Source: Eledone cirrhosa (Eukaryota). From it: 64,000 nucleotides of DNA. Shown in pieces: positions 3,345-57,400 of the stretch (position 1 is the first letter of the stretch; every line of letters begins with the position of its first letter). The notes beneath the pieces are model-generated. The model was not told where the DNA came from. It did no database searches and saw only the letters and a list, made by a program, of their open reading frames with translations. A program made the translations under genes and the position numbers. Where the stretch lies: positions 68,200,001-68,264,000 of the forward strand of contig OZ024742.1 of assembly GCA_964016885.1 (NCBI GenBank). Reading direction: 5' to 3'.

Positions 3345-3475
3345 TCTGATTTAGACACAAGTCTAGCAATTTGGGGGGAGGGGAAAGTCGATTAAATCGA
3401 CCCCACTGGTACTTTATTTTATCGACCCCGTAAGGATGAAAGGCAAAGGTAACCTCGAGGAATTTGAACTCAGTA
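3345..3475 (-). mobile_element. SINE family A, inverted copy
   Basis: Reverse complement of the core: TGGTACTTTATTTTATCGACCCCGTAAGGATGAAAGGCAAAG...ATTTGAACTC. Confidence 0.85.
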
Positions 3476-3489
3476 CGCAACGTGATGTA

Positions 3490-3636
3490 ACTGCGTTCGG
3501 ATCTAGCTGTCGAAACGACCGGAGAACAGCCGTCGAGGTCCTGACGCTTTTCCTATTACCCACTCTACTACCCTAAGTATTGAGTACTATGGTGCGTTAT
3601 GGTCCATCTGGTATCTTACCACACCCTCTTTGTTAT
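3490..3636 (+). mobile_element. Solo 3' terminal fragment of the PLE family at 17.6-21.2 kb (3' half of the hammerhead plus the 80-nt tail)
   Basis: TAGCTGTCGAAACGACC...CCTATTACCCACTCTACTACCCTAAGTATTGAGTACTATGGTGCGTTATGGTCCA matches the reverse complement of 17641-17770 and ends in (TA)n. Confidence 0.8.
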
Positions 3637-4820: not shown

Positions 4821-5011
4821 TGGTAAAAACCAGTTAGACCATTACTCACCAGAGTACTCGATACTTGGGATAGCAGAGTGGGTAATATGAAAACTTCGGG
4901 ACACCGACGGCTGAGCTCCGGTCGTTTCAACAGCTAGATTCGAACGCTGAGTTCGGCTCTAGCTGTTGAAACGGCCGGAGCTCAGCGATTGGGGTCCCGA
5001 ATTTTTCATAT
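4821..5011. mobile_element. Miniature fold-back copy of the same PLE terminus
   Basis: Tail 4821-4884, then inverted arms 4885-4945 and 4951-5011 carrying the GAAAC/stem III half of the HHR. The right arm runs into (TA)n. Confidence 0.75.
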
Positions 5012-17076: not shown

Positions 17077-17735
17077 ATTATTTGTAAGATACACAAGTAG
17101 AGTGCAACAGATTTTAATGACTTTCCATCTCAAATTAAAGATTTCTCAGTTGGGAACTCAGTAAATAGAGAACACGGTAATTCATAATGTTTAGAATAAC
17201 CAAAGGTTGCTACATGACAAATATGCAACAAAAGTAAACACCTGAAAAGGTTCACAGCAGAAACATGTTTAAGAAACACCTAATTCACAGGCCTGAGTAA
17301 TACAGTTTCTAGACTCCCAAATGTCAAGACGTGTGTCTTCAGCAGGGTTTTGAAGGGAACCCACAAGCACAGAGCATAGTTATATACAGAAGAGTATTTT
17401 GCAGTAAAGCAGGAAGTCACAGTTCCCAACGAAGAAACATATTTCGGTTAAGACGAAACAATTTCGCTCGACTTTCATTAATTCGTTTCTTAATTCAGTT
17501 AAAACTATTTCCTACTCAGTAGTTATCGTACGGTTGCTTTCGCGCTAATATATTCCCTATCACCTCATATTCTTTTTCTCTTTCGCTTTTTCTTAAGAAA
17601 ATATAATGACACACACAAATATATATATATATATATATATATAACGAAGGAAATGTGGTAAGGAACCAGGTGGACCATAACGCACCAAAGTACTCAATAC
17701 TTGAGGTAGTAGAGTGGGTAATAGGAACCAGTAAG

Positions 17736-17829
17736 ACCCCGACAGCTGAGCTCAAGCCGTTTCGACGGCTAATTCTGGACTAAATGAACATTTATCCTGG
17801 TATTTAAATAGCCGATCTTCTCAAGGGGT
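17736..17829 (-). ncRNA. Type I hammerhead ribozyme (U3-A8 core variant), left-arm copy
   Basis: Reverse complement of 21135-21228. Confidence 0.75.
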
Positions 17830-18927
17830 AATTCCATATATGGTCAAAGTGATTGTCAAAAATCAGTAGTAATTCTGTGGTTGCAAATTAGTAGGGGAGA
17901 TGGTGGCTAAACCTGCCAGTAGGAGAAAGAGGGGAGGGGGTGGATTAGACCCAATCAAGCGTTGGTAGTGCCAGCTACAGCTGGGCATGAGGTCAAAGAA
18001 GATACAGGGGAGGGGGAGGGGGAGGAAGTCGGAACGGTAGGTAGAACAATGGGGGGTAAAAATAGGAAAGAAAAAATACTGAGAGTGAAGAAAAGCAAAT
18101 AAGTGTAAAGAAAAAATTAAATTCTACGACCTAGGTGTCAGGCTATTGTTAGGCGAGAATAAAATAAAGAAAGAAAGAAAGAAGTAAATAAATAAATAAA
18201 TAAATAAATAAGGAAATAAGTAAAAGAACTAGGTGGGACGAATTAGGCAAGGACCCTTTTAAGAGGTATAAGTACGTAAATGATACGGTGACTGGTCAAC
18301 AAAAGGGGCCAAAATACTAAAGAGACTACCACGAAATAAACAATAAAGGTTTCCATCCCGGGCCAGCAACGACCCAGTGCAGCAAAGTGAACTTGTACGA
18401 CATAATAATTCTGAGTCCCGGGAAAAATATATACTAATGCTAACTCTAAAAGATCTAAAACAAGCTACATGAAAGTTCGTACGAAATAAAGGTAGAATAC
18501 GGAGAAATAAGTTCAGAATCCACCCCGCCCAGAAGAAAAGCGAAGCAAGAAATACTGAAACGAAAAAATAAGGCATAAGTGCCACTAAGAAATATAGAGG
18601 GCACAGAGAATAGTGGGAGCGGTCGGAAAAGGGGGGCAAGTATCCGGGGTCTAAGCCAACTGCTATAAAGGGCGGAGTCCGCCAAATCTATCAAAGACTA
18701 GGGGAGGGGGGAGTGGGGGTACTAAGGCTACATGGGGCCAAAGGGCAGCCTCGGGTGGGCGAGAAAAGACGCCGACAAAGGAGAAGAGCTGGGGTAGAAG
18801 GACAAAGGAGAGAGGGGGGAAGGAAATAAAGGATGCGATAAAAGAATACAAAGAAGATCTAACGTCTTCCTTGGCAAGCAGGGGTTACCCATTGTAAAAT
18901 AGGCAACTGGGGTGTTATAGCCCTAGT

Positions 18928-19566
18928 CTACCCCCCCGGGTCATTATGGGGTTTGAGGGCGAGGTAAGTCCTACGCAATCTATGTTTACATGCAGTAACC
19001 AGTTCATCTTTCTTGTTTAGGAGTTGGTCCGTCGAAAACAGCATTTGTAAAGTTTCCTCCGAGCATAAATTGCACGGACGGCGTCCTCCCGTGTAAGAAT
19101 TGGCTCTGGACAGTAATCTCCAAGTGAGATCATAGGTGATGTTGTTGTCCTTGAGGTCCCATATGTGGCCCGAAAGTGTAGTGGCGTGGCGCCGGGCCGG
19201 GTTTCGGAAGGTATGTCTATGTTGGTATAGCCGGGTCTTGAAGTCACATGCGGTAAGTCCTATATAGGCTTTGTTGGAGGTATCCGTCCTCACGTTGCAC
19301 TGGTAGATCACATTACGGTCTCTGCATCTATTGTCGAGTGGGCAAATAGATCTATCCGGGCAGTTACACCTCCTGGTCGGTTCTCCACTGCTATTTAGGT
19401 TATTTCTGCCATCGGGGTTGAGTTTTTTGTTGTTAGAGGAGACGATGTTTTGTGCGAAGTTTGGTGTAGTGCTGTAAGAGAGTTTGATGGTATTTTTGTT
19501 AATTATGTTGTGGTAGCGGTGTTGTAATAGGAAGTGTTTTTCAATGAGCCTAAAGAATAGTTTCCC
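18928..19566 (-). CDS. PLE ORF C-terminal fragment: linker, Cys-rich motif and GIY-YIG endonuclease (5' truncated)
   Basis: Open frame GKLFFRLIEKHF...NKNTIKLSYSTTPN...CNCPDRSICPLDNRC..NVIYQC...YIGLT..FKTRLYQH...LSGHIW...CNLCSEE...LLNKKDEL..CKH, typical of PLE endonucleases. Confidence 0.9.
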   Translation of the reverse strand, partial: GKLFFRLIEKHFLLQHRYHNIINKNTIKLSYSTTPNFAQNIVSSNNKKLNPDGRNNLNSSGEPTRRCNCPDRSICPLDNRCRDRNVIYQCNVRTDTSNKAYIGLTACDFKTRLYQHRHTFRNPARRHATTLSGHIWDLKDNNITYDLTWRLLSRANSYTGGRRPCNLCSEETLQMLFSTDQLLNKKDELVTACKHRLRRTYLALKPHNDPGG

Positions 19567-20036
19567 TAAATAGCAGTGGAGAACCGACCAGGAGGTGTAA
19601 CTGCCCGGATAGATCTATTTGCCCACTCGACAATAGATGCAGAGACCGTAATGTGATCTACCAGTGCAACGTGAGGACGGATACCTCCAACAAAGCCTAT
19701 ATAGGACTTACCGCATGTGACTTCAAGACCCGGCTATACCAACATAGACATACCTTCCGAAACCCGGCCCGGCGTCACGCCACTACACTTTCGGGCCACA
19801 TATGGGACCTCAAGGACAACAACATCACCTATGATCTCACTTGGAGATTACTGTCCAGAGCCAATTCTTACACGGGAGGACGCCGTCCGTGCAATTTATG
19901 CTCGGAGGAAACTTTACAAATGCTGTTTTCGACGGACCAACTCCTAAACAAGAAAGATGAACTGGTTACTGCATGTAAACATAGATTGCGTAGGACTTAC
20001 CTCGCCCTCAAACCCCATAATGACCCGGGGGGGTAG
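19566..20036 (+). CDS. Inverted second copy of the PLE GIY-YIG endonuclease fragment
   Basis: Same protein from LNSSGEPTRRCNC onward; ORF track 19653..20036 is identical to 18928..19311. Confidence 0.88.
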   Translation, partial: LNSSGEPTRRCNCPDRSICPLDNRCRDRNVIYQCNVRTDTSNKAYIGLTACDFKTRLYQHRHTFRNPARRHATTLSGHIWDLKDNNITYDLTWRLLSRANSYTGGRRPCNLCSEETLQMLFSTDQLLNKKDELVTACKHRLRRTYLALKPHNDPGG

Positions 20037-21134
20037 ACTAGGGCTATAACACCCCAGTTGCCGATTTTACAATGGGTAACCCCTGCTTGCCAAGGAAGAC
20101 GTTAGATCTTCTTTGTATTCTTTTATCGCATCCTTTATTTCCTTCCCCCCTCTCTCCTTTGTCCTTCTACCCCAGCTCTTCTCCTTTGTCGGCGTCTTTT
20201 CTCGCCCACCCGAGGCTGCCCTTTGGCCCCATGTAGCCTTAGTACCCCCACTCCCCCCTCCCCTAGTCTTTGATAGATTTGGCGGACTCCGCCCTTTATA
20301 GCAGTTGGCTTAGACCCCGGATACTTGCCCCCCTTTTCCGACCGCTCCCACTATTCTCTGTGCCCTCTATATTTCTTAGTGGCACTTATGCCTTATTTTT
20401 TCGTTTCAGTATTTCTTGCTTCGCTTTTCTTCTGGGCGGGGTGGATTCTGAACTTATTTCTTCGTATTCTCCCTTTATTTCGTACGAACTTTCATGTAGC
20501 TTGTTTTAGATCTTTTAGAGTTAGCATTAGTATATATTTTTCCCGGGACTCAGAATTATTATGTCGTACAAGTTCACTTTGCTGCACTGGGTCGTTGCTG
20601 GCCCGGGATGGAAACCTTTATTGTTTATTTCGTGGTAGTCTCTTTAGTATTTTGGCCCCTTTTGTTGACCAGTCACCGTATCATTTACGTACTTATACCT
20701 CTTAAAAGGGTCCTTGCCTAATTCGTCCCACCTAGTTCTTTTACTTATTTCCTTATTTATTTATTTATTTATTTATTTACTTCTTTCTTTCTTTCTTTAT
20801 TTTATTCTCGCCTAACAATAGCCTGACACCTAGGTCGTAGAATTTAATTTTTTCTTTACACTTATTTGCTTTTCTTCACTCTCAGTATTTTTTCTTTCCT
20901 ATTTTTACCCCCCATTGTTCTACCTACCGTTCCGACTTCCTCCCCCTCCCCCTCCCCTGTATCTTCTTTGACCTCATGCCCAGCTGTAGCTGGCACTACC
21001 AACGCTTGATTGGGTCTAATCCACCCCCTCCCCTCTTTCTCCTACTGGCAGGTTTAGCCACCATCTCCCCTACTAATTTGCAACCACAGAATTACTACTG
21101 ATTTTTGACAATCACTTTGACCATATATGGAATT

Positions 21135-21228
21135 ACCCCTTGAGAAGATCGGCTATTTAAATACCAGGATAAATGTTCATTTAGTCCAGAATTAGCCGTC
21201 GAAACGGCTTGAGCTCAGCTGTCGGGGT
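21135..21228 (+). ncRNA. Type I hammerhead ribozyme (U3-A8 core variant), right-arm copy
   Basis: Stem I ACCCC/GGGGT; core TTGAGAA; stem II GA(T)CGGCTA/TAGCCGTC with a long loop; GAAA; stem III ACGGCT/AGCTGT; predicted cleavage after GTC (C21223). Confidence 0.75.
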
Positions 21229-21238
21229 CTTACTGGTT

Positions 21239-21304
<66 letters not shown>

Positions 21305-35884: not shown

Positions 35885-38985
<3,101 letters not shown>

Positions 38986-48519: not shown

Positions 48520-51500
48520 CGATAATGATAATAATCAAAAGTATAAAAAATTGAAAATTTCCCTCAACGAAATCTTCCAAAGAGAAATTAATTCATGTAT
48601 AAATATCTCTCTTGCTGAACGTATTAAAACGACAATGTTTAATAAAAAAAAAACCTAGATAATGAAATATTACGTGTTATTGATGAAATAGCGGATGAAT
48701 ATTTACAACGGATAAAAACCCCCAACATTCTGGCAAATCAACGCCTGTTTATATGCCTTAGCAACGACAGTGAGGCATTATCTTGGTGATAGCAGAGATA
48801 TTAACAAGAATAAAACACCACCAAAAATACCATCATATATAACTAAAATAGAAAAAAAGATTGCTGACCTACGAAAAACCATAGGATATGTGACAATGCT
48901 CCTTACATGCAAACAAACACAAAAAATCCTCACTCCTCACCAACAAAGAGTGAAAAATAAAATAGAGACGATTTTTGGTAACAGTCGAACCAGAATTCTT
49001 CAATATAAGCTGATCACCCTCAAACAAGAATTGAGAGCTGTTAGCGAAAAACGCCGATACCTGAATAAGAGAAAAGTGCTTTATAAAAGATTCAGACGAA
49101 ACCAAACATCGGTCTATAGAGATATGAAGAACAAAATAATAAGTGTCACTGAGGTCCCATCCCAGAAAGACATAGATTCCTTTTGGAGCAAAATATGGGG
49201 TAAAAAGAAGAATTTCAACCAAGATGCAGTGTGGCTAAGAGAAATCCGAAAGAACTATTTCTCCTACACTACAACAAAAACATACGAAATATGTTAGGGT
49301 ACCCTTGAGACTGTGATAGGAAAATTCCAAGATAAGAAAACACCAGGAAGAGACATGATTGTCGGCTACGGGTACAAGAAACTGATATTCTATCGAGGTA
49401 TCTTACTGAGCTCTACAAACAAGTTCTTAAAGGAGATACACGTATACCAGAATGGTTGACATTAGCACAAACATTACTGGTCCCCAAGAACAAAGACATC
49501 CACTTGGCAAAAACCTACCGACCCATTGTATAAGATGTATACAGCCTGCCTGAACCTATGTGAAAATAATAACATCACCACAGATGAACAAGCAGCTGGA
49601 AAGAAAGGGGTTTGGGGATGTGCTGAACACCTCCTAATCAACAAAACTGCGATGTCGGAGGTACGACAACTTAAGAGGAATATGGCTACAGTCTGGCTGG
49701 ACTACAGGAAAGCTTTCGATTCTGTTCCCCATTCTTGGATGATAGAGGCCCTCCAACTTGCTAAAGTCCCAGACATTATTGTCAGAGCCATAGAGAGGCT
49801 GTCTTCTTCTTGGGCTAATATCCTAAGGTTAAATACACAGAGGGAGGACTCTATTTTCACTGATAAAATAAAATATTGCAGGGGTATATTTCAGGTGGAC
49901 AGTCTCTCTGTGATATTATTTATCTTGTCATTAAACCCCTTGTCCTTTCTGCTCAAGAAATGTGAGGGATACATCATTGGCTCACAGGAGCACAGAAATA
50001 CGAACCTAAACCATAATTTCTTTGTGGACGATCTGAAACTCTATGACAAGAGCATGGATGGGATGACGAAAAATCTTGACCTGGTTACAACGTTCTCAAA
50101 GGATATAGGAATGGAGTTTGGCCAAGATAAATGCTCATACATGACTGTAAAGCGGAAAAAACAACAACCCAATCTAGCAACATTGTCATCAATGGTCTAA
50201 CTGTTTCACCGATATCTGATGAGGACTGCTACATATACCTGGGGATAGATGCCTATAATGGTATCTGTAATAAGGAACGCGTAACTAGGGAATACTACAC
50301 CCGATTAAGAAAGATTTGGTCATTGGAACTCTCTGCGCAAAACAAAACAGTGGCTCACAATGTGTTTGCTGTGCCTGTCCTAACACCAACGTTTGGAATA
50401 CTCAATTGGACGATAGACGAAATCCGAGCAGTTGATGTTGGAACTCGAAAAATACTAAACAACACCGGAAACTTCCACATCAACAGTGATATAGACCGCC
50501 TTTACTTGAAACGTAAACAGGGAGGCAACGGCCTAACATCAGTCCAGACAGCATTTGAATGTCGCATCATATCCCTCCGACATCTACGAACCTCGAAGCG
50601 TAGGAGCCCGTCTCTCGAGCATGTCTATCTGCATGAAACAGATAAGATCATGAGAGTTGGGAAGGAACTCCTCGAGAGATGTTCCCTGTGTGATAATCAA
50701 AAACTCATACCCAGGGATGTCGCTCAGCAGTATCGCAGTGGATCCATGGATGAAAAGCTGCATGCTTATCAGCAAAATATCATGCATGGATATGTTGCCA
50801 GGAAGCTCCAGCGTGAGAGTAATGTAGATAAGGAAAGTAGTCTATCTTGGATCAACAACCGCTATATTGGCTCCCACTTTGAAAGATACGCTTTTGCAAT
50901 CCAAGAACAGGAGTTTAACACGAAATACCTGATTCACAAAATAGATAGGGATGCATGCAAAACACCTAGATGGGATAACAAGTGCAGACTCTGCAGAACT
51001 AACATCGAGGATATCACCCATGTCATCAGCAGCTGTCCAAAGATTTCATCGCGGTACTATCTACCTATGAGGCATGATGTAGTGGCCGAAACACTGTACA
51101 TTGCAGTCCGTAAAAAAGATAGTCCCGATAATAAACACATTAAAAGCTACAGCAATGTGGAAGACATCCATGTACATAATACGAAAGAGTACTGGTGGAA
51201 TATTCCAGTAAAAACCCCAATAAAATGCAGGCATAATAGACCAGATATTATGATATGGGACAGGGAGAAGAAAGCATGTACAGAAGTTGAAATTAGCTGC
51301 CCAGCAGATGCCAATATAATATCAAAGATTAGCGAAAAGGAGAATATTTATGCAGAACTGATGAGAAATTTGCAGATACTCCACCCTGCTTACACCTTCA
51401 GATTTATGCCTGTGATTATTGGGGCACTGGGATATGTTAGTAACTGCCTCAATACAAATCTTGAGAAGCTGGGCTTCATAGACACAGAAAGAACACGACT

Positions 51501-51797
51501 AGTTAGGAGATTACAAGTACAATCCATTAATGGAGCAGTAACAATATGTAAAACATTCGAAAACTTTTGCATCTAATAACTGCATATACCCATGTACAGA
51601 TACAAAGCATATACACATACAACTCAAAACATACACATCCACACATACAATAACATCCATATCTACACATGCATGCATACATACATATCTACCTAGATAA
51701 TGTTGTGTAAATTCCAATAAGAGAGTCTTGTGTCTATGTTAGAAACCGACTCTCTCACTATTGGGAATTAATTTGTGAAATTATAAAACCAGAAGAA
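48518..51797 (+). mobile_element. R4/Dong-like non-LTR retrotransposon (RT, CCHC and REL endonuclease), disrupted, flanked by (CATA)n
   Basis: RT motifs EQAAGKKGVWGC, WLDYRKAFDSVPH, RGIFQVDSLS, FVDDLKLY; CRLC...HVISSC knuckle; RHD and RPD...E.SCP...K..IY REL motifs. 3' UTR stem-loop CCAATAAGAGAGTC/GACTCTC..CTATTGG. (CATA)n at 48439-48517 and 51798-51833. Confidence 0.93.
49526..51576 (+). pseudogene. Frameshifted RT-REL ORF of the R4/Dong-like element
   Basis: ORFs 49526..50200 and 50131..51576 overlap in different frames; the upstream part is in 48770..49297. Confidence 0.88.
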
Positions 51798-52599: not shown

Positions 52600-52680
52600 G
52601 GAAGAATCGACCTCAGTACTGGACTGGTACTTTATTTATCGATCTCGAAAGGATGAAAGGCAAAGTTGACCCCGGCGGGA
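52600..52680 (-). mobile_element. SINE family A fragment
   Basis: TGGTACTTTATTTATCGA...GGATGAAAGGCAAAGTTGACCCCGGCGGGA. Confidence 0.75.
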
Positions 52681-52746
52681 CGAATACACAGGTGGGATGA
52701 ATACACAGACACACAGACACACACAGGAATATATATATATATATAT

Positions 52747-52854
52747 ATAACGAAGGAAATGTGGTAAGGAACCAGATGGACCCTAACGCACCAAAGTACT
52801 CAATACTTAGGGTAGTAGAGTGGGTAATAGGAACGAGTAGGGGTCCTACTCGTT

Positions 52855-52859
<5 letters not shown>
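52747..52859. mobile_element. Smallest fold-back copy of the PLE terminus, in (TA)n
   Basis: 80-bp tail nearly identical to 17641-17720, then ATAGGAACGAGTAGG-GGT-CCTACTCGTTCCTAT; (TA)n on both sides. Confidence 0.88.
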
Positions 52860-52912
<53 letters not shown>

Positions 52913-53619: not shown

Positions 53620-56600
53620 ATATGCCCCTGTAAACGTTTCGTATTCCTCCAGTAAGGTGCCGATGACCCCGATTTCCGATGTGGTCGACACCATTACTCT
53701 CACGTCATCGGCATAGGCCAGCACCGCTTTCCGCAATCCCGGTTCCAAAGGGATGCTCTGTAACAACTCCAACTTCCGCAGCAGTGGCTCTGGGGCCAAT
53801 ACATACAGAATGGAGGAGAGAGGGCATCCCTATCGGATGGACAGCATGATTTCGAACGGCTCCGAGAGGTAGCCGTTCACCTTGACCCTAGAGCAGATGC
53901 GGCTGCTGTGCATGGCAGTGATCCAGCCCCTGAAAACGGGTCCGAAACCTGCTGCCACTAGCACCGCATCCAGGTAATGATGGTTGACCCTATCGAGCGC
54001 CTTAGATTGATCCAAGTTGATCAGGGCCCCACCAAAGCCGGATTCGTTCCCAACCCTCTCTATGATGTATCGCATGAGATGGAGGTTGTCGTGAATGGAC
54101 CTGGACGGGATGGCGCATGTCTGCGCATCTCCAACCAGGTTGCCCACTACAAGCGCCAACCTCTTTGCTAACACATTGGCCAAAATCTTTAACTCTGCTT
54201 TAGCAGTGTTATGGGCCTAAAATTACTTATTTCATCCCCCTTGTTCTCATCCTTCCTCACTAGCGAGACTACGCCCTTGGTCACAGAACAGCGAATTCTC
54301 CCGTTCTGTTTCCAGTTGCAGTAGACCGCTTCGAGGAGATCGAAGAACAAGTCCGGCATACTTAAATACAGTTCGTATGGAAGACCATCGAGGCCCGGTG
54401 ATTTGCGTCTGCCGCATTGGCTCAGCACGTCCCTTATCTCAGCAGCTGAGATCGGCCTCTCGCAGGACTTCGCCTCCTCGTCCGAAAGACGCGGCAGCCG
54501 TCGAGGTATGGACCGAGGTATACATCCCCATCCGGCTCCTCGTCCCTTCCGAGCAATCGGGCAAAGTGCCTTTGAAAGGCCTCGCACATCTGCTTAGGTT
54601 CAAGGATCACCCGTCCATCCTGGTCTCGCAAAGACCGGATACTGGATCTAATCCCACTTTTGGCTTATGTCACGCGGGCCCAGCTAGCAGGTTTGGTCCC
54701 CTCGTTTTCCAGAGCACATTTTGCTTCGGACAACGCAGTCTTCGTATTTCGCGTCGAAGGACTGGCCCAAGGCCGTTCTCGGCGCTAGCACTCTGGCTAC
54801 GCCGCCGCTTCTAATTGCCTCTTCTACACTATCTACCAACTCCCTTTCCTTCCTATTTCTATCTAAGGCTAACTCCTTACTAACTCCTATTGAAGCTACA
54901 CTAGTCTCTCTTTTGAGAGAGCCCCACCATCTGCTGTTGACAATGGCGCCCGTCAACCGCTCCTTAACTAATGTACTAATCTGGTTCCTGTAAGCTTTAC
55001 TTGCCGGTAAGAACAAGTTGAGCTTCCAGTAACCGTGTCCCTGTCTATGCGTTCTATCAAGGTTGACCATGGAGGTCACTAACTTGTGGTCTGAATAGAC
55101 AACCATGAGGTTTTTTTTTGACAACTTAAAAAGTCCCTATCCTTATTTCTAACTAAGAACCTGTCTAGGTACGATCTAGATTGACCGCTGTGGTTTCTCC
55201 AAGTCCAGGTTGGCACAGTTGGAAAATCTAGTCGATATCTATCGGCCAGGTCGAATCGGCCGATTAACCCATTGAGGCTGTTACAACCCCCTCTATCAGG
55301 ACATGCCCCTACATAGTCCCAACGTACATCTAGGATACCATTCCAGACCCCACTAAAAGTCTGCAGACGATGGAAGAAGTCCGGCCGCGTTGACCCAAAA
55401 GGCGACCAGCCTAAAAGCTCCGCCTTCACCACTGCCAATGTCCAGAACCACTAGTCGACCCTCCGGGTCCAAGTGTACCGTCTGTGTAGCGAGACCCAGA
55501 TGTTTTTGCAGCAGAACAACAACCCCACCCCACCTCCGGGCTGACAGAGAGATGCGTGCATCTCAAAGTCATCAAAGGTGGGGGCCAGCTGTCGCACGCT
55601 GCTGATCCGGGCCTCGAAAATAACCATCACATTTATACATCGTGACCTGAGGTCATTTAGAAGCATTGCTTGCTTCCAAGGTGAGCCCAGGCCACGCGTA
55701 TGTTGGTGGTAAAGAGACAAGGCACTTACCTCTCTGCGTCCCGAGGACCGGGCCGCACAATTTCCATGGGGGTGGGGGATGGGTTGTTGGGGGGTGGGGG
55801 TTGTGGAAATGTAGGGGCATCAGTGTGTGGTGGGGTTGGGGTGTTTGGAGTTGTGTGGGTGTCTCGGTGGGGGAAATTTTTTAGGAGGACACGGTTAATG
55901 GGTCTGACGCTGGAGGGCCCCACGTCCTCTTTAAATCTGTCTTTTAACGTTTTGTAAATGTCCATTGGGGATTTTATCATTTTTAGATGGGGAAGCCCCG
56001 TTGCTTCTGCGAAATTCTAACTTTCTGTTTTTATTAAGTTGTTATTATAAATAACGTTTAACAGTTTTTTGTTTATTGTATTTATGTAAGTATATGCATA
56101 TTTTTCTTTTTGAGTGATGTTTTTGTTTGCTGTTGTTGTGTGTTTTTTTGTGTTGATGTCTGTGTTATGTCTTGGGGAGGGGTTGTTTGTATTTGTGTTC
56201 CTGTTGTGTGTTTTCTTTTAACTTTATGAAAGTCTGAAAGTCCCCCCCCCCCCCTCGTCTGACGTCAAAAGAGGGTAAATTCCGTATTCGAGGGGAGGGG
56301 TTCATTTCCGGCTAGTGTATGTGGTGTGGGTGTTATTGTATTTGTTTTCTGACTGGGGGGATGGGTGGGATTGTTTTCAGTTGTGTTTTAACTTGTGGCG
56401 TTAGTTGTTTTTGTGGTGGTGGTGGAGGTTGTGTTGGTAGTGTTGTACTTGTTGGTGTAGGCAAAATCGGTGTTTTTTTGTTTTCTTGGGAACAGGCAGC
56501 CCTCAAGTGACCTCTGCCACTACAGAAGTAATAAGCGCGTCGTCTACCCTCCACTGTGATGTGTAAGTAGGCAAGCCCATCCAGCAATATGCGGTCGGGG

Positions 56601-57400
56601 ATCCTAGCAATTCGTTCTGGCTGCATTTGTACCAGAACTTGCAGGCTAGTTCCACCGAACACGTTGCTGGAAGACTTACCTACCGAAATTACTGCATCCT
56701 CTTTCAAGTCGAGGAGGCCACACAGTACCACCCAGAAATCAATATCTGGATCGATACTGTGTATGGTCAATCTTTGTGTTTTTCTTCCCAAATAAGTGGG
56801 GAAGAAGGTAAATAAGGGGGACACAATTGGGGCCAGGGAATGTTTTTCGGCCGTCAATTTATCTTTCATTCGGATGGATAGACTACCGTAGAGTCTATCC
56901 TTCCGAATGAATACAAAGTTTTTCAGATGATCTTTTAAAGCCAGTTCAATCTCTGTCTGTGTGAGTTGTACTGGCTTACGGGTTTTTTGATATTGTCCTA
57001 TAAATAATAGTTTTTAAGCTATTTTCCTTTTTTAGCTCTGGGGGAGAATTTAAAGAAAATAGACCATTCTCCTCCAAAGTTATATACTTCCGTGCATTTT
57101 CTATTTGCTGGGCCATGTTCGAAATGTCAATAGGTTCATACAGCGAACGTCATTTTGTTCGCCCCCTCTCTGTTTATATTTCTCGAAATGAGGTTGTTTT
57201 CTTGTTTTTTTTTTTGTTACAATTATCATTTTTTGTTGTGTTTGTGTTATTTATGTTGGTGTATGCGTTCACACCATTTCTTCAAAAGGTTCACTTATAT
57301 TTTCAGTATCTGAGAGACTTGTAGTCACAGCTACTACTTCTCTTTCAGCTTTGCTCGTGGGCGTGACACCGTGAAAAGTCGAAACGGCATCCATTAATGT
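53620..57400 (-). mobile_element. L1/Tx1-like retrotransposon: ORF1, APE endonuclease and RT, truncated after the YADD motif
   Basis: ORF1 remnant with knuckle-like YYFCSGRGHLRAAC (56333..56869); APE motifs NTRGL-like HTRGLG, D.YR, TW...SYLDRFL, SDHKLV; RT motifs KSPGLDGLPYELY, NFRPITLL, DQSKALDRVNH, YADDV. The 5' boundary is approximate. Confidence 0.9.

Follow-up and report, generated by a model that had tools for sequence, protein, structure and literature searches.

Several hallmarks of Penelope-like elements (PLEs), namely an inverted truncated copy, a one-sided tail and a bias towards (TA)n, have already been described in three sources (PMC8557442, PMC3846280, PMC2377424), the first of which names the formation of the inverted repeat and the tail as an open problem. 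Published explanations are self-priming on the antisense template for the inversion and nuclease resolution for the tail (PMC3846280, PMC8557442). The Hydra clade of C-terminal-endonuclease PLEs is marked, according to Craig et al. (2021; PMC8557442), by the motifs RWK and DKT, a CxCx5C linker, CxxC and CxH flanking E and N, and (TA)n targeting. Biochemical work on an anole PLE, Poseidon PAc of Anolis, found that both target strands are cut and extended in vitro and that reverse transcription starts at two internal sites bounding the tail, with the steps after priming left unvalidated; the paper neither assigns one start to each strand within one insertion nor explains the inverted arm (Frangieh et al., 2024; PMC11167929).

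We analysed a 64,000-nucleotide stretch of the Eledone cirrhosa genome (hereafter the window) together with further copies of the same element genome-wide. Positions within the element are counted from site 0, the T that closes TTCC-TAT and with it the tail-less arm (window 21243 and 52859); the T that closes the tail is +80, negative numbers lead into the element, and one natural unit from locus L129 served as the reference sequence. The largest insertion, a 3.6-kb copy at 17641-21243, consists of an 80-nt tail (17641-17720, minus strand), a tailed arm carrying the pLTR and the 3' end of the ORF to about -1845 (17721-19566, minus strand) and a tail-less inverted arm from -1678 to 0 (19565-21243, plus strand). 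Its arms match over 1,679 bp each (17721-19399 and 19565-21243) with 4 mismatches, the 165-bp spacer is the continuation of the tailed arm, and (TA)n lies at both ends. A 5'-truncated ORF remnant with the CxCx5C linker and a GIY-YIG-type endonuclease domain occupies 18928-19566 (minus strand). The smallest insertion, 113 bp long (52747-52859), has the same parts in miniature: a tail from +1 to +80 whose outer TAT triplet fuses with (TA)n (52747-52826, minus strand), a tailed arm of 15 nt from -14 to 0 (52827-52841, minus strand) and a tail-less arm of 20 nt from -19 to 0 (52840-52859, plus strand), the two arms overlapping by 2 nt. With 20 nt against 15 nt the tail-less arm is here the deeper one, and it begins at the predicted hammerhead cut discussed below. 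The (TA)n target tract extends over 52857-52910 on the right of this copy, and a TA run covers 52729-52749 on its left.

A third copy at 4821-5011 belongs to an older subfamily (78-81% identical); its eroded tail and the adjoining arm lie on the minus strand, its arms measure about 60 nt, its turn is near 4945-4950 and its tail-less arm ends in TTCATAT at 5011 before a degenerate TA/TG run. The original prediction had given these three inserts a common layout of tail, arm, turn, inverted arm and (TA)n, with the long arm running 80 nt further in the two young copies. That extension is exact at 17641-17720 and 52747-52826, and the layout is complete in both copies; at 4821-5011 the arms and the short end could be confirmed, and the far tail end and any (TA)n on the tail side are unrecognisable. 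All three inserts are real. A fourth copy had been overlooked, a single arm with its tail running into (TA)n (3504-3636, plus strand), for which a search detected no inverted partner.

The window also holds other repeats. An unrelated short interspersed repeat occurs twice, by eye, just upstream of two of the Penelope copies (about 3385-3490 and 52600-52685). A frameshifted non-LTR retrotransposon ORF at 49466-51576 (plus strand) has an RVT_1 match followed by a cysteine knuckle and the RHD/RPD motifs of a restriction-like endonuclease, and presumably resembles the R4/Dong clade. Fragments of another reverse-transcriptase element, with a weak RVT_1 match, lie at 53830-57324 (minus strand), and 35894-38981 is a tract of some 3 kb of degenerate (TA)n that shows inverted similarity within itself.

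Judged from their sequences, the three inserts are copies of an active Penelope-like retrotransposon with Hydra-clade motifs, which bears out the single PLE family first proposed. The unit is 3,531 bp long, near-identical copies with 784-codon open frames are found across the 3.0-Gb genome, some of them in tandem with a period of 3,531 bp, and the copy number is about 20,000 or more, mostly as palindromes of ~200 bp. Its single ORF, counted from the first ATG (+171), comprises 717 aa with a reverse transcriptase (RT) and, at the C terminus, a GIY-YIG domain; in one unit (L129:2318-2518) the open frame reaches a further 67 codons upstream from this ATG, through the 3' half of the hammerhead and the tail. 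The 717-aa ORF itself had no match in Pfam or PDB sequence searches, whereas its best homologue matches PF01541 in Pfam. Among 8,000 candidates scored, 2,049 were homologues, and in an alignment of 103 sequences YRDD, DKT, RW(K/R), the CxCx5C linker, YIG/R/E/N, CxxC and CxH were nearly invariant, with the RT motif YRDD invariant and the nuclease residues VIYQ...YIG, R, E and N kept in 101-103 of the 103 homologues. A structure model of the ORF (pLDDT 92.5) gave TERT as its top PDB match (3du5, E 1.2e-8), with DRT9 almost equal.

The Hydra-type motifs of the ORF are RWR (RWK in the family), DKT, C572-x-C574-x5-C580, C670xxC673 and C698xH700, and the GIY-YIG core has one Cys only and no CCHH. 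General PLE hallmarks are present as well, including tandem or partial-tandem units forming pLTRs, an adjacent inverted truncated copy and the tail. The family shares with the Hydra clade (Craig et al., 2021; PMC8557442) RW(K/R), DKT, CxCx5C, CxxC/CxH on either side of the catalytic E and N, the lack of a CCHH pair, insertion into (TA)n, a predicted hammerhead-like fold, partially tandem units, a neighbouring inverted copy truncated at its 5' end and a tail on one side only. It differs from what is described there in its 3,531-bp unit (generally under 3 kb there, as a tendency and not a rule), its 80-nt tail (30-40 nt there), a tail asymmetry that is near-obligate where the clade shows it 'often', a U3-A8 hammerhead core with no Rfam match, and the abundance of small palindromes given above. 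Membership of the Naiad/Chlamys PLEs, which have an N-terminal endonuclease and no hammerhead, is ruled out by the C-terminal position of the endonuclease.

Genome-wide, the family has two fixed outer ends. Exact matches numbered 22,699 for the tail end, 18,787 for an arm end consisting of site 0 plus TA, and 18,816 for arms running on into the tail, and the tail continued into the ORF leader at 308 places only; the reversed control gave 0 in each case. When 101 arms were chosen by an anchor upstream of both ends, and thus blind to the 3' end, 50 stopped exactly at 0 and 36 exactly at +80, and 84 of these 86 ran into TA (background 7.6%). By eye, small changes aside, a further 5 stopped at 0 and a further 6 at the tail end, and 4 stopped elsewhere. 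Both the fixed short-arm end at TTCCTAT with (TA)n and the 80-nt tail, proposed from the window copies, are therefore general features of the family. Pairs were sampled on contig C1, chiefly in its first 27 Mb, at the sites listed for three patterns, and counted as distinct by genome coordinate. This sample, on which the proportions of tail/tail, tail/no-tail and no-tail/no-tail pairs rest, leans toward 0 ends because one of the patterns demands a 0 end. It contained 136 distinct head-to-head pairs, 111 of which were +80/0 by automatic parsing. Inspection by eye of 26 exceptions in a nearly identical set of pairs showed that most were of the +80/0 type, with alignments that were broken or that had mismatches or deletions close to one end; three were interrupted, one was a two-tailed copy (L012) and none was a 0/0 pair. 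A further 40 stretches contained no two-tailed or no-tailed pair.

Raw Illumina reads from two other samples showed the same ends, with 3,181 and 2,772 reads having (AT)n loose ends exactly at 0 and 8,198 and 8,917 having loose ends exactly at +80, and strand-switch joints were present too; read ends piled up at one internal place probably mark the restriction site of a RAD library.

The target is likewise constant. TA was found on both sides in 99 of the 111 pairs, and flanked 105 of the 111 tail ends and 103 of the 111 tail-less ends (background 6%), in line with the (TA)n targeting originally suggested. New insertions are frequently found in the TA flank of an older copy, so that palindromes cluster within one tract (L118, L121, L126, L184, L267, L282, L296, L297). 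Flush duplications of 12-16 bp that include both terminal/priming triplets were seen in five copies, in one of which a target base replaces an element base, and informative duplications of any kind in 6 of 99 (shuffled mean 0.7, maximum 4). In the C1 sample a target duplication was seen in 3 of 88 testable pairs, with shuffles giving up to 3. A universal 12-16-bp target duplication failed validation in a new set (0/22), and several interruptions of the TA tract lying 7-13 nt from one end have no counterpart at the other, so that the stagger is either variable or its evidence eroded.

The three copies in the window, with turns at very different depths, had suggested scattered turn points. Tabulation beyond the window did yield the sharp peak of short-arm ends at TTCC-TAT, but the turn points also proved to have a sharp mode: in 91 of 111 sampled pairs the end of the deeper arm fell between -53 and -66, the distribution breaking off sharply at -64, and only 6 of the 111 went beyond -66. 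The edge coincides with an initiator-like TCATTT (21177-21182, plus strand; A at -64, 21179), which presumably resembles the initiator consensus and is a candidate RNA 5' end at which most cDNAs would stop. Among long tail-through-ORF copies with a visible 5' end, 0 of 9 start near -64. The position is thus unsupported as the start of the full-length mRNA; it is probably the 5' end of a short transcript and could alternatively be an RT roadblock. All 30 young small junctions compared were distinct, so each was made anew, as the proposed generation of a new palindrome at each insertion had implied. Among 41 young small junctions, 20 had an overlap of 0-1 nt, 6 an overlap of 2-6 nt and 15 had 1-9 inserted bases, and 4 of the 41 copies had loop-less perfect palindromes at the centre.

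A type I hammerhead ribozyme is predicted from the fold at 21129-21240 (plus strand; mirrored at 17724-17835, minus strand), with a U3-A8 core, which we take to be a compensatory variant, and a cut predicted after C21223. The hammerhead-like fold spans -114 to -3 and has three stems, GAAA and a GUC site, with the predicted cut between -20 and -19; it is no more stable than shuffles (z-score 0.2), and an Rfam search gave no match. The fixed TAT end does lie about 20 nt 3' of this predicted cut, as had been stated. In the 111-pair sample, 8 arm ends fell at -19 to -22, against 1, 3, 0 and 3 in neighbouring 4-nt bins, and the 113-bp copy belongs to this class; the cluster hints weakly at cleavage in vivo. 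The predicted cut is 5' of both fixed ends, so most templates must be uncut there.

We read each of these insertions as a head-to-head pair of pieces in (TA)n, its outer ends fixed at sites 80 nt apart and its origin being twin priming with end-joining, and give this reading a probability of roughly 0.7 on the evidence of finished insertions. The original prediction was of snap-back: a single cDNA begun at the tail would abort, fold over, serve as its own template and be cut or resolved at an internal TAT. Unequal arms would then stem from later deletions in the unstable centre of the palindrome. Self-priming has been proposed for inverted junctions (PMC3846280), and nuclease resolution for the tail (PMC8557442). 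Snap-back needs a tailed arm that is at least as deep as the other arm and contains all of it, and is therefore contradicted by tail-less arms that are deeper or richer in sequence. The tail-less arm was deeper by >3 nt in 35 of the 111 pairs, the tailed arm in 26, and the two were within 3 nt in 50; where the gap exceeded 10 nt, the tail-less arm was deeper in 24 pairs and the tailed arm in 8 (p=0.007). Eight of the 111 pairs do not overlap, the tailed arm never reaching 0, and 3 of these 8 tailed arms stop at +4 to +7, beside the second start site. Among kilobase pairs, chosen by their nuclease domain, the tail-less arm was deeper in 8, the tailed in 9 and neither in 1 of the 18 in which both ends were seen, the corresponding numbers in a second set of 12 being 3, 8 and 1. 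One insertion (L128-L129, G000:C1:437198000-437214400) opposes a tailed arm of 287 bp to a tail-less arm of about 12.5 kb made of three full units and a partial one, the units being almost 100% identical. Extra segments occur as well. The first 30 of the 308 tail-through-leader places comprise 26 distinct elements, 8 of them short chained copies whose outer segment breaks off at -57 to -63 (7) or at -19 (1), the sequence picking up again at +142 to +898; in one of them the -63 to +193 piece occurs twice. These chains read best as template jumps after run-off, because deletions would not share one breakpoint. Four of the 8 lie in the tail-less arm as extra element segments with breakpoints at -59/-60; on the template-jump reading, the tail-less arm is itself a separate cDNA. 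Separately, short head-to-tail chains of the first 250-300 nt (-63 onward) at L233:1306-2032 and G000:C2:356030077-356030699 resemble retrozyme-like arrays and suggest repeated copying of one short or circular RNA. Given also the loop-less centres with little microhomology, snap-back would survive only if every such copy had been rearranged later, and we regard it as quite unlikely.

What snap-back does account for is the likeness of the arms, whose depths are often close. In 82 of 90 pairs both arms carry one and the same subfamily haplotype (against a mean of 22 and a maximum of 36 after shuffling), a match that subfamilies active at different times explain in part. In 11 young deep copies the arms differ by 0.9 per 1.2 kb within a copy and by 6.4 between copies, and 13 of 17 checked variants common to both arms were absent from every other fetched element. 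Such private variants, the main point against the twin-priming model, fit copying of one RNA or one source locus, and would be explained equally by snap-back, many source loci or arm-to-arm conversion; they also occur in copies whose tail-less arm is deeper. The deep arms lie within 100 nt of each other's depth in 6 of 18 copies, so a coupling through one template is needed. This coupling and the copy-private variants tell against priming at two ends on two RNAs held by a protein pair, or the start of both cDNAs at the tail with one trimmed to site 0 by a nuclease. Two templates would more simply explain why both arms cover one stretch of RNA, a dimer is predicted for the anole protein (PMC11167929) and one two-tailed copy exists (L012), but 3 of the 8 non-overlapping tailed arms halt 4-7 nt short of site 0 as if blocked, and trimming alone leaves the priming triplet at both sites unexplained; we consider this alternative unlikely. 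Copying of the ~200-bp palindromes as whole non-autonomous mini-elements that inherit their short end would suit the uniform size, with 91 of 111 turns within 14 nt. It is very improbable given that the junctions of all 30 young small copies differ, that the sample holds no family of identical centres and that kilobase copies have the same two ends with centres that are all different. Long palindromes are a known artefact of long-read libraries. Almost no probability attaches to an assembly or library origin of these inversions, since the independent Illumina reads show both ends and the strand-switch joints and so bear out the inversions at family level, the arms differ by mutations (4 in the 3.6-kb copy) and artefacts would not produce a fixed 80-nt offset at about 19,000 places.

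Under twin priming, the GIY-YIG nuclease, whose family targets (TA)n, would cut both strands of the tract, in some events with a stagger of 12-16 nt. The two outer ends occur one of each per insertion, and to prime synthesis the UAU at +80 may pair with one target end (...ATA-3') and that at 0 with the other. Both cDNAs would then run toward the RNA 5' end, probably on one RNA or on RNA of one locus. Most stop near the observed edge at -64, probably the 5' end of a short transcript, and leave dead palindromes of about 200 bp; a few would stop at the hammerhead cut (-19), some would jump to a new template position, and arms of kilobase or multi-unit length would come from long read-through templates. 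A head-to-head joint, with 0-2 nt of microhomology or small insertions, connects the two cDNA ends, and each joined cDNA would template the second strand of the other side. The evidence argues strongly, if indirectly, that the second cDNA is primed independently on the RNA by the other target strand; against assigning each start to its own strand, no start-site difference between strands was seen in vitro for the anole element (PMC11167929). We put only slightly better than even odds on the broader proposal that twin priming is the normal integration route. Every insertion would then prime both cut strands on one RNA, at two programmed UAU sites separated by 80 nt, with the overlapping cDNAs end-joined and templating each other's second strand, and short transcripts from near -64 would make about 20,000 small palindromes in TA microsatellites.

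An inversion made by two primed strands has a precedent outside the PLEs. In L1 twin priming, attributed to Ostertag and Kazazian in 2001, each of the two target strands reportedly primes a cDNA on the same RNA, and the resulting inversion is joined by microhomology; this is said to be occasional, with a variable second site and cDNAs that cover adjacent parts. Here, in contrast, twin priming would be the rule, both sites are fixed and the cDNAs overlap. On this reading the family has in common with PAc the cutting and extension of both strands, an AT-rich target, two tail-bounding RT starts and an uncleaved RNA template. The start site of PAc is described as non-homologous to the target (Frangieh et al., 2024; PMC11167929), whereas each of the two sites here is a UAU triplet that fits the target end. 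In Pen2a_Av and in D. virilis Penelope (PMC3846280, PMC2377424) a head-to-head inverted pLTR of variable length, an optional tail on one arm and a palindromic junction are similarly found, with target duplications of 8-10 bp; self-priming on the antisense template is invoked there, and the data presented here argue against it. Passages from PMC13282606 and bioRxiv 10.64898/2026.07.22.740005 had no bearing on the structure. The architecture is already published, and genomic evidence of this kind for its mechanism was not found in the literature searched: among openly accessible papers, none was found that proposes twin priming for PLEs or assigns one start site to each target strand.

What the window contains is a known kind of structure, in a member that is new and extremely abundant. 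This family provides natural products by the tens of thousands, their ends exact, along with intact 717-aa ORFs, a defined (TA)n target and a pair of defined start sites; the published ideas on the inverted repeat and the tail can be told apart with it, and the question becomes directly testable. A single element seeds the genome with palindromes at microsatellites and, if the proposal is true, twin priming as the normal route would account for the inverted pLTR and the one-sided tail of PLEs generally.
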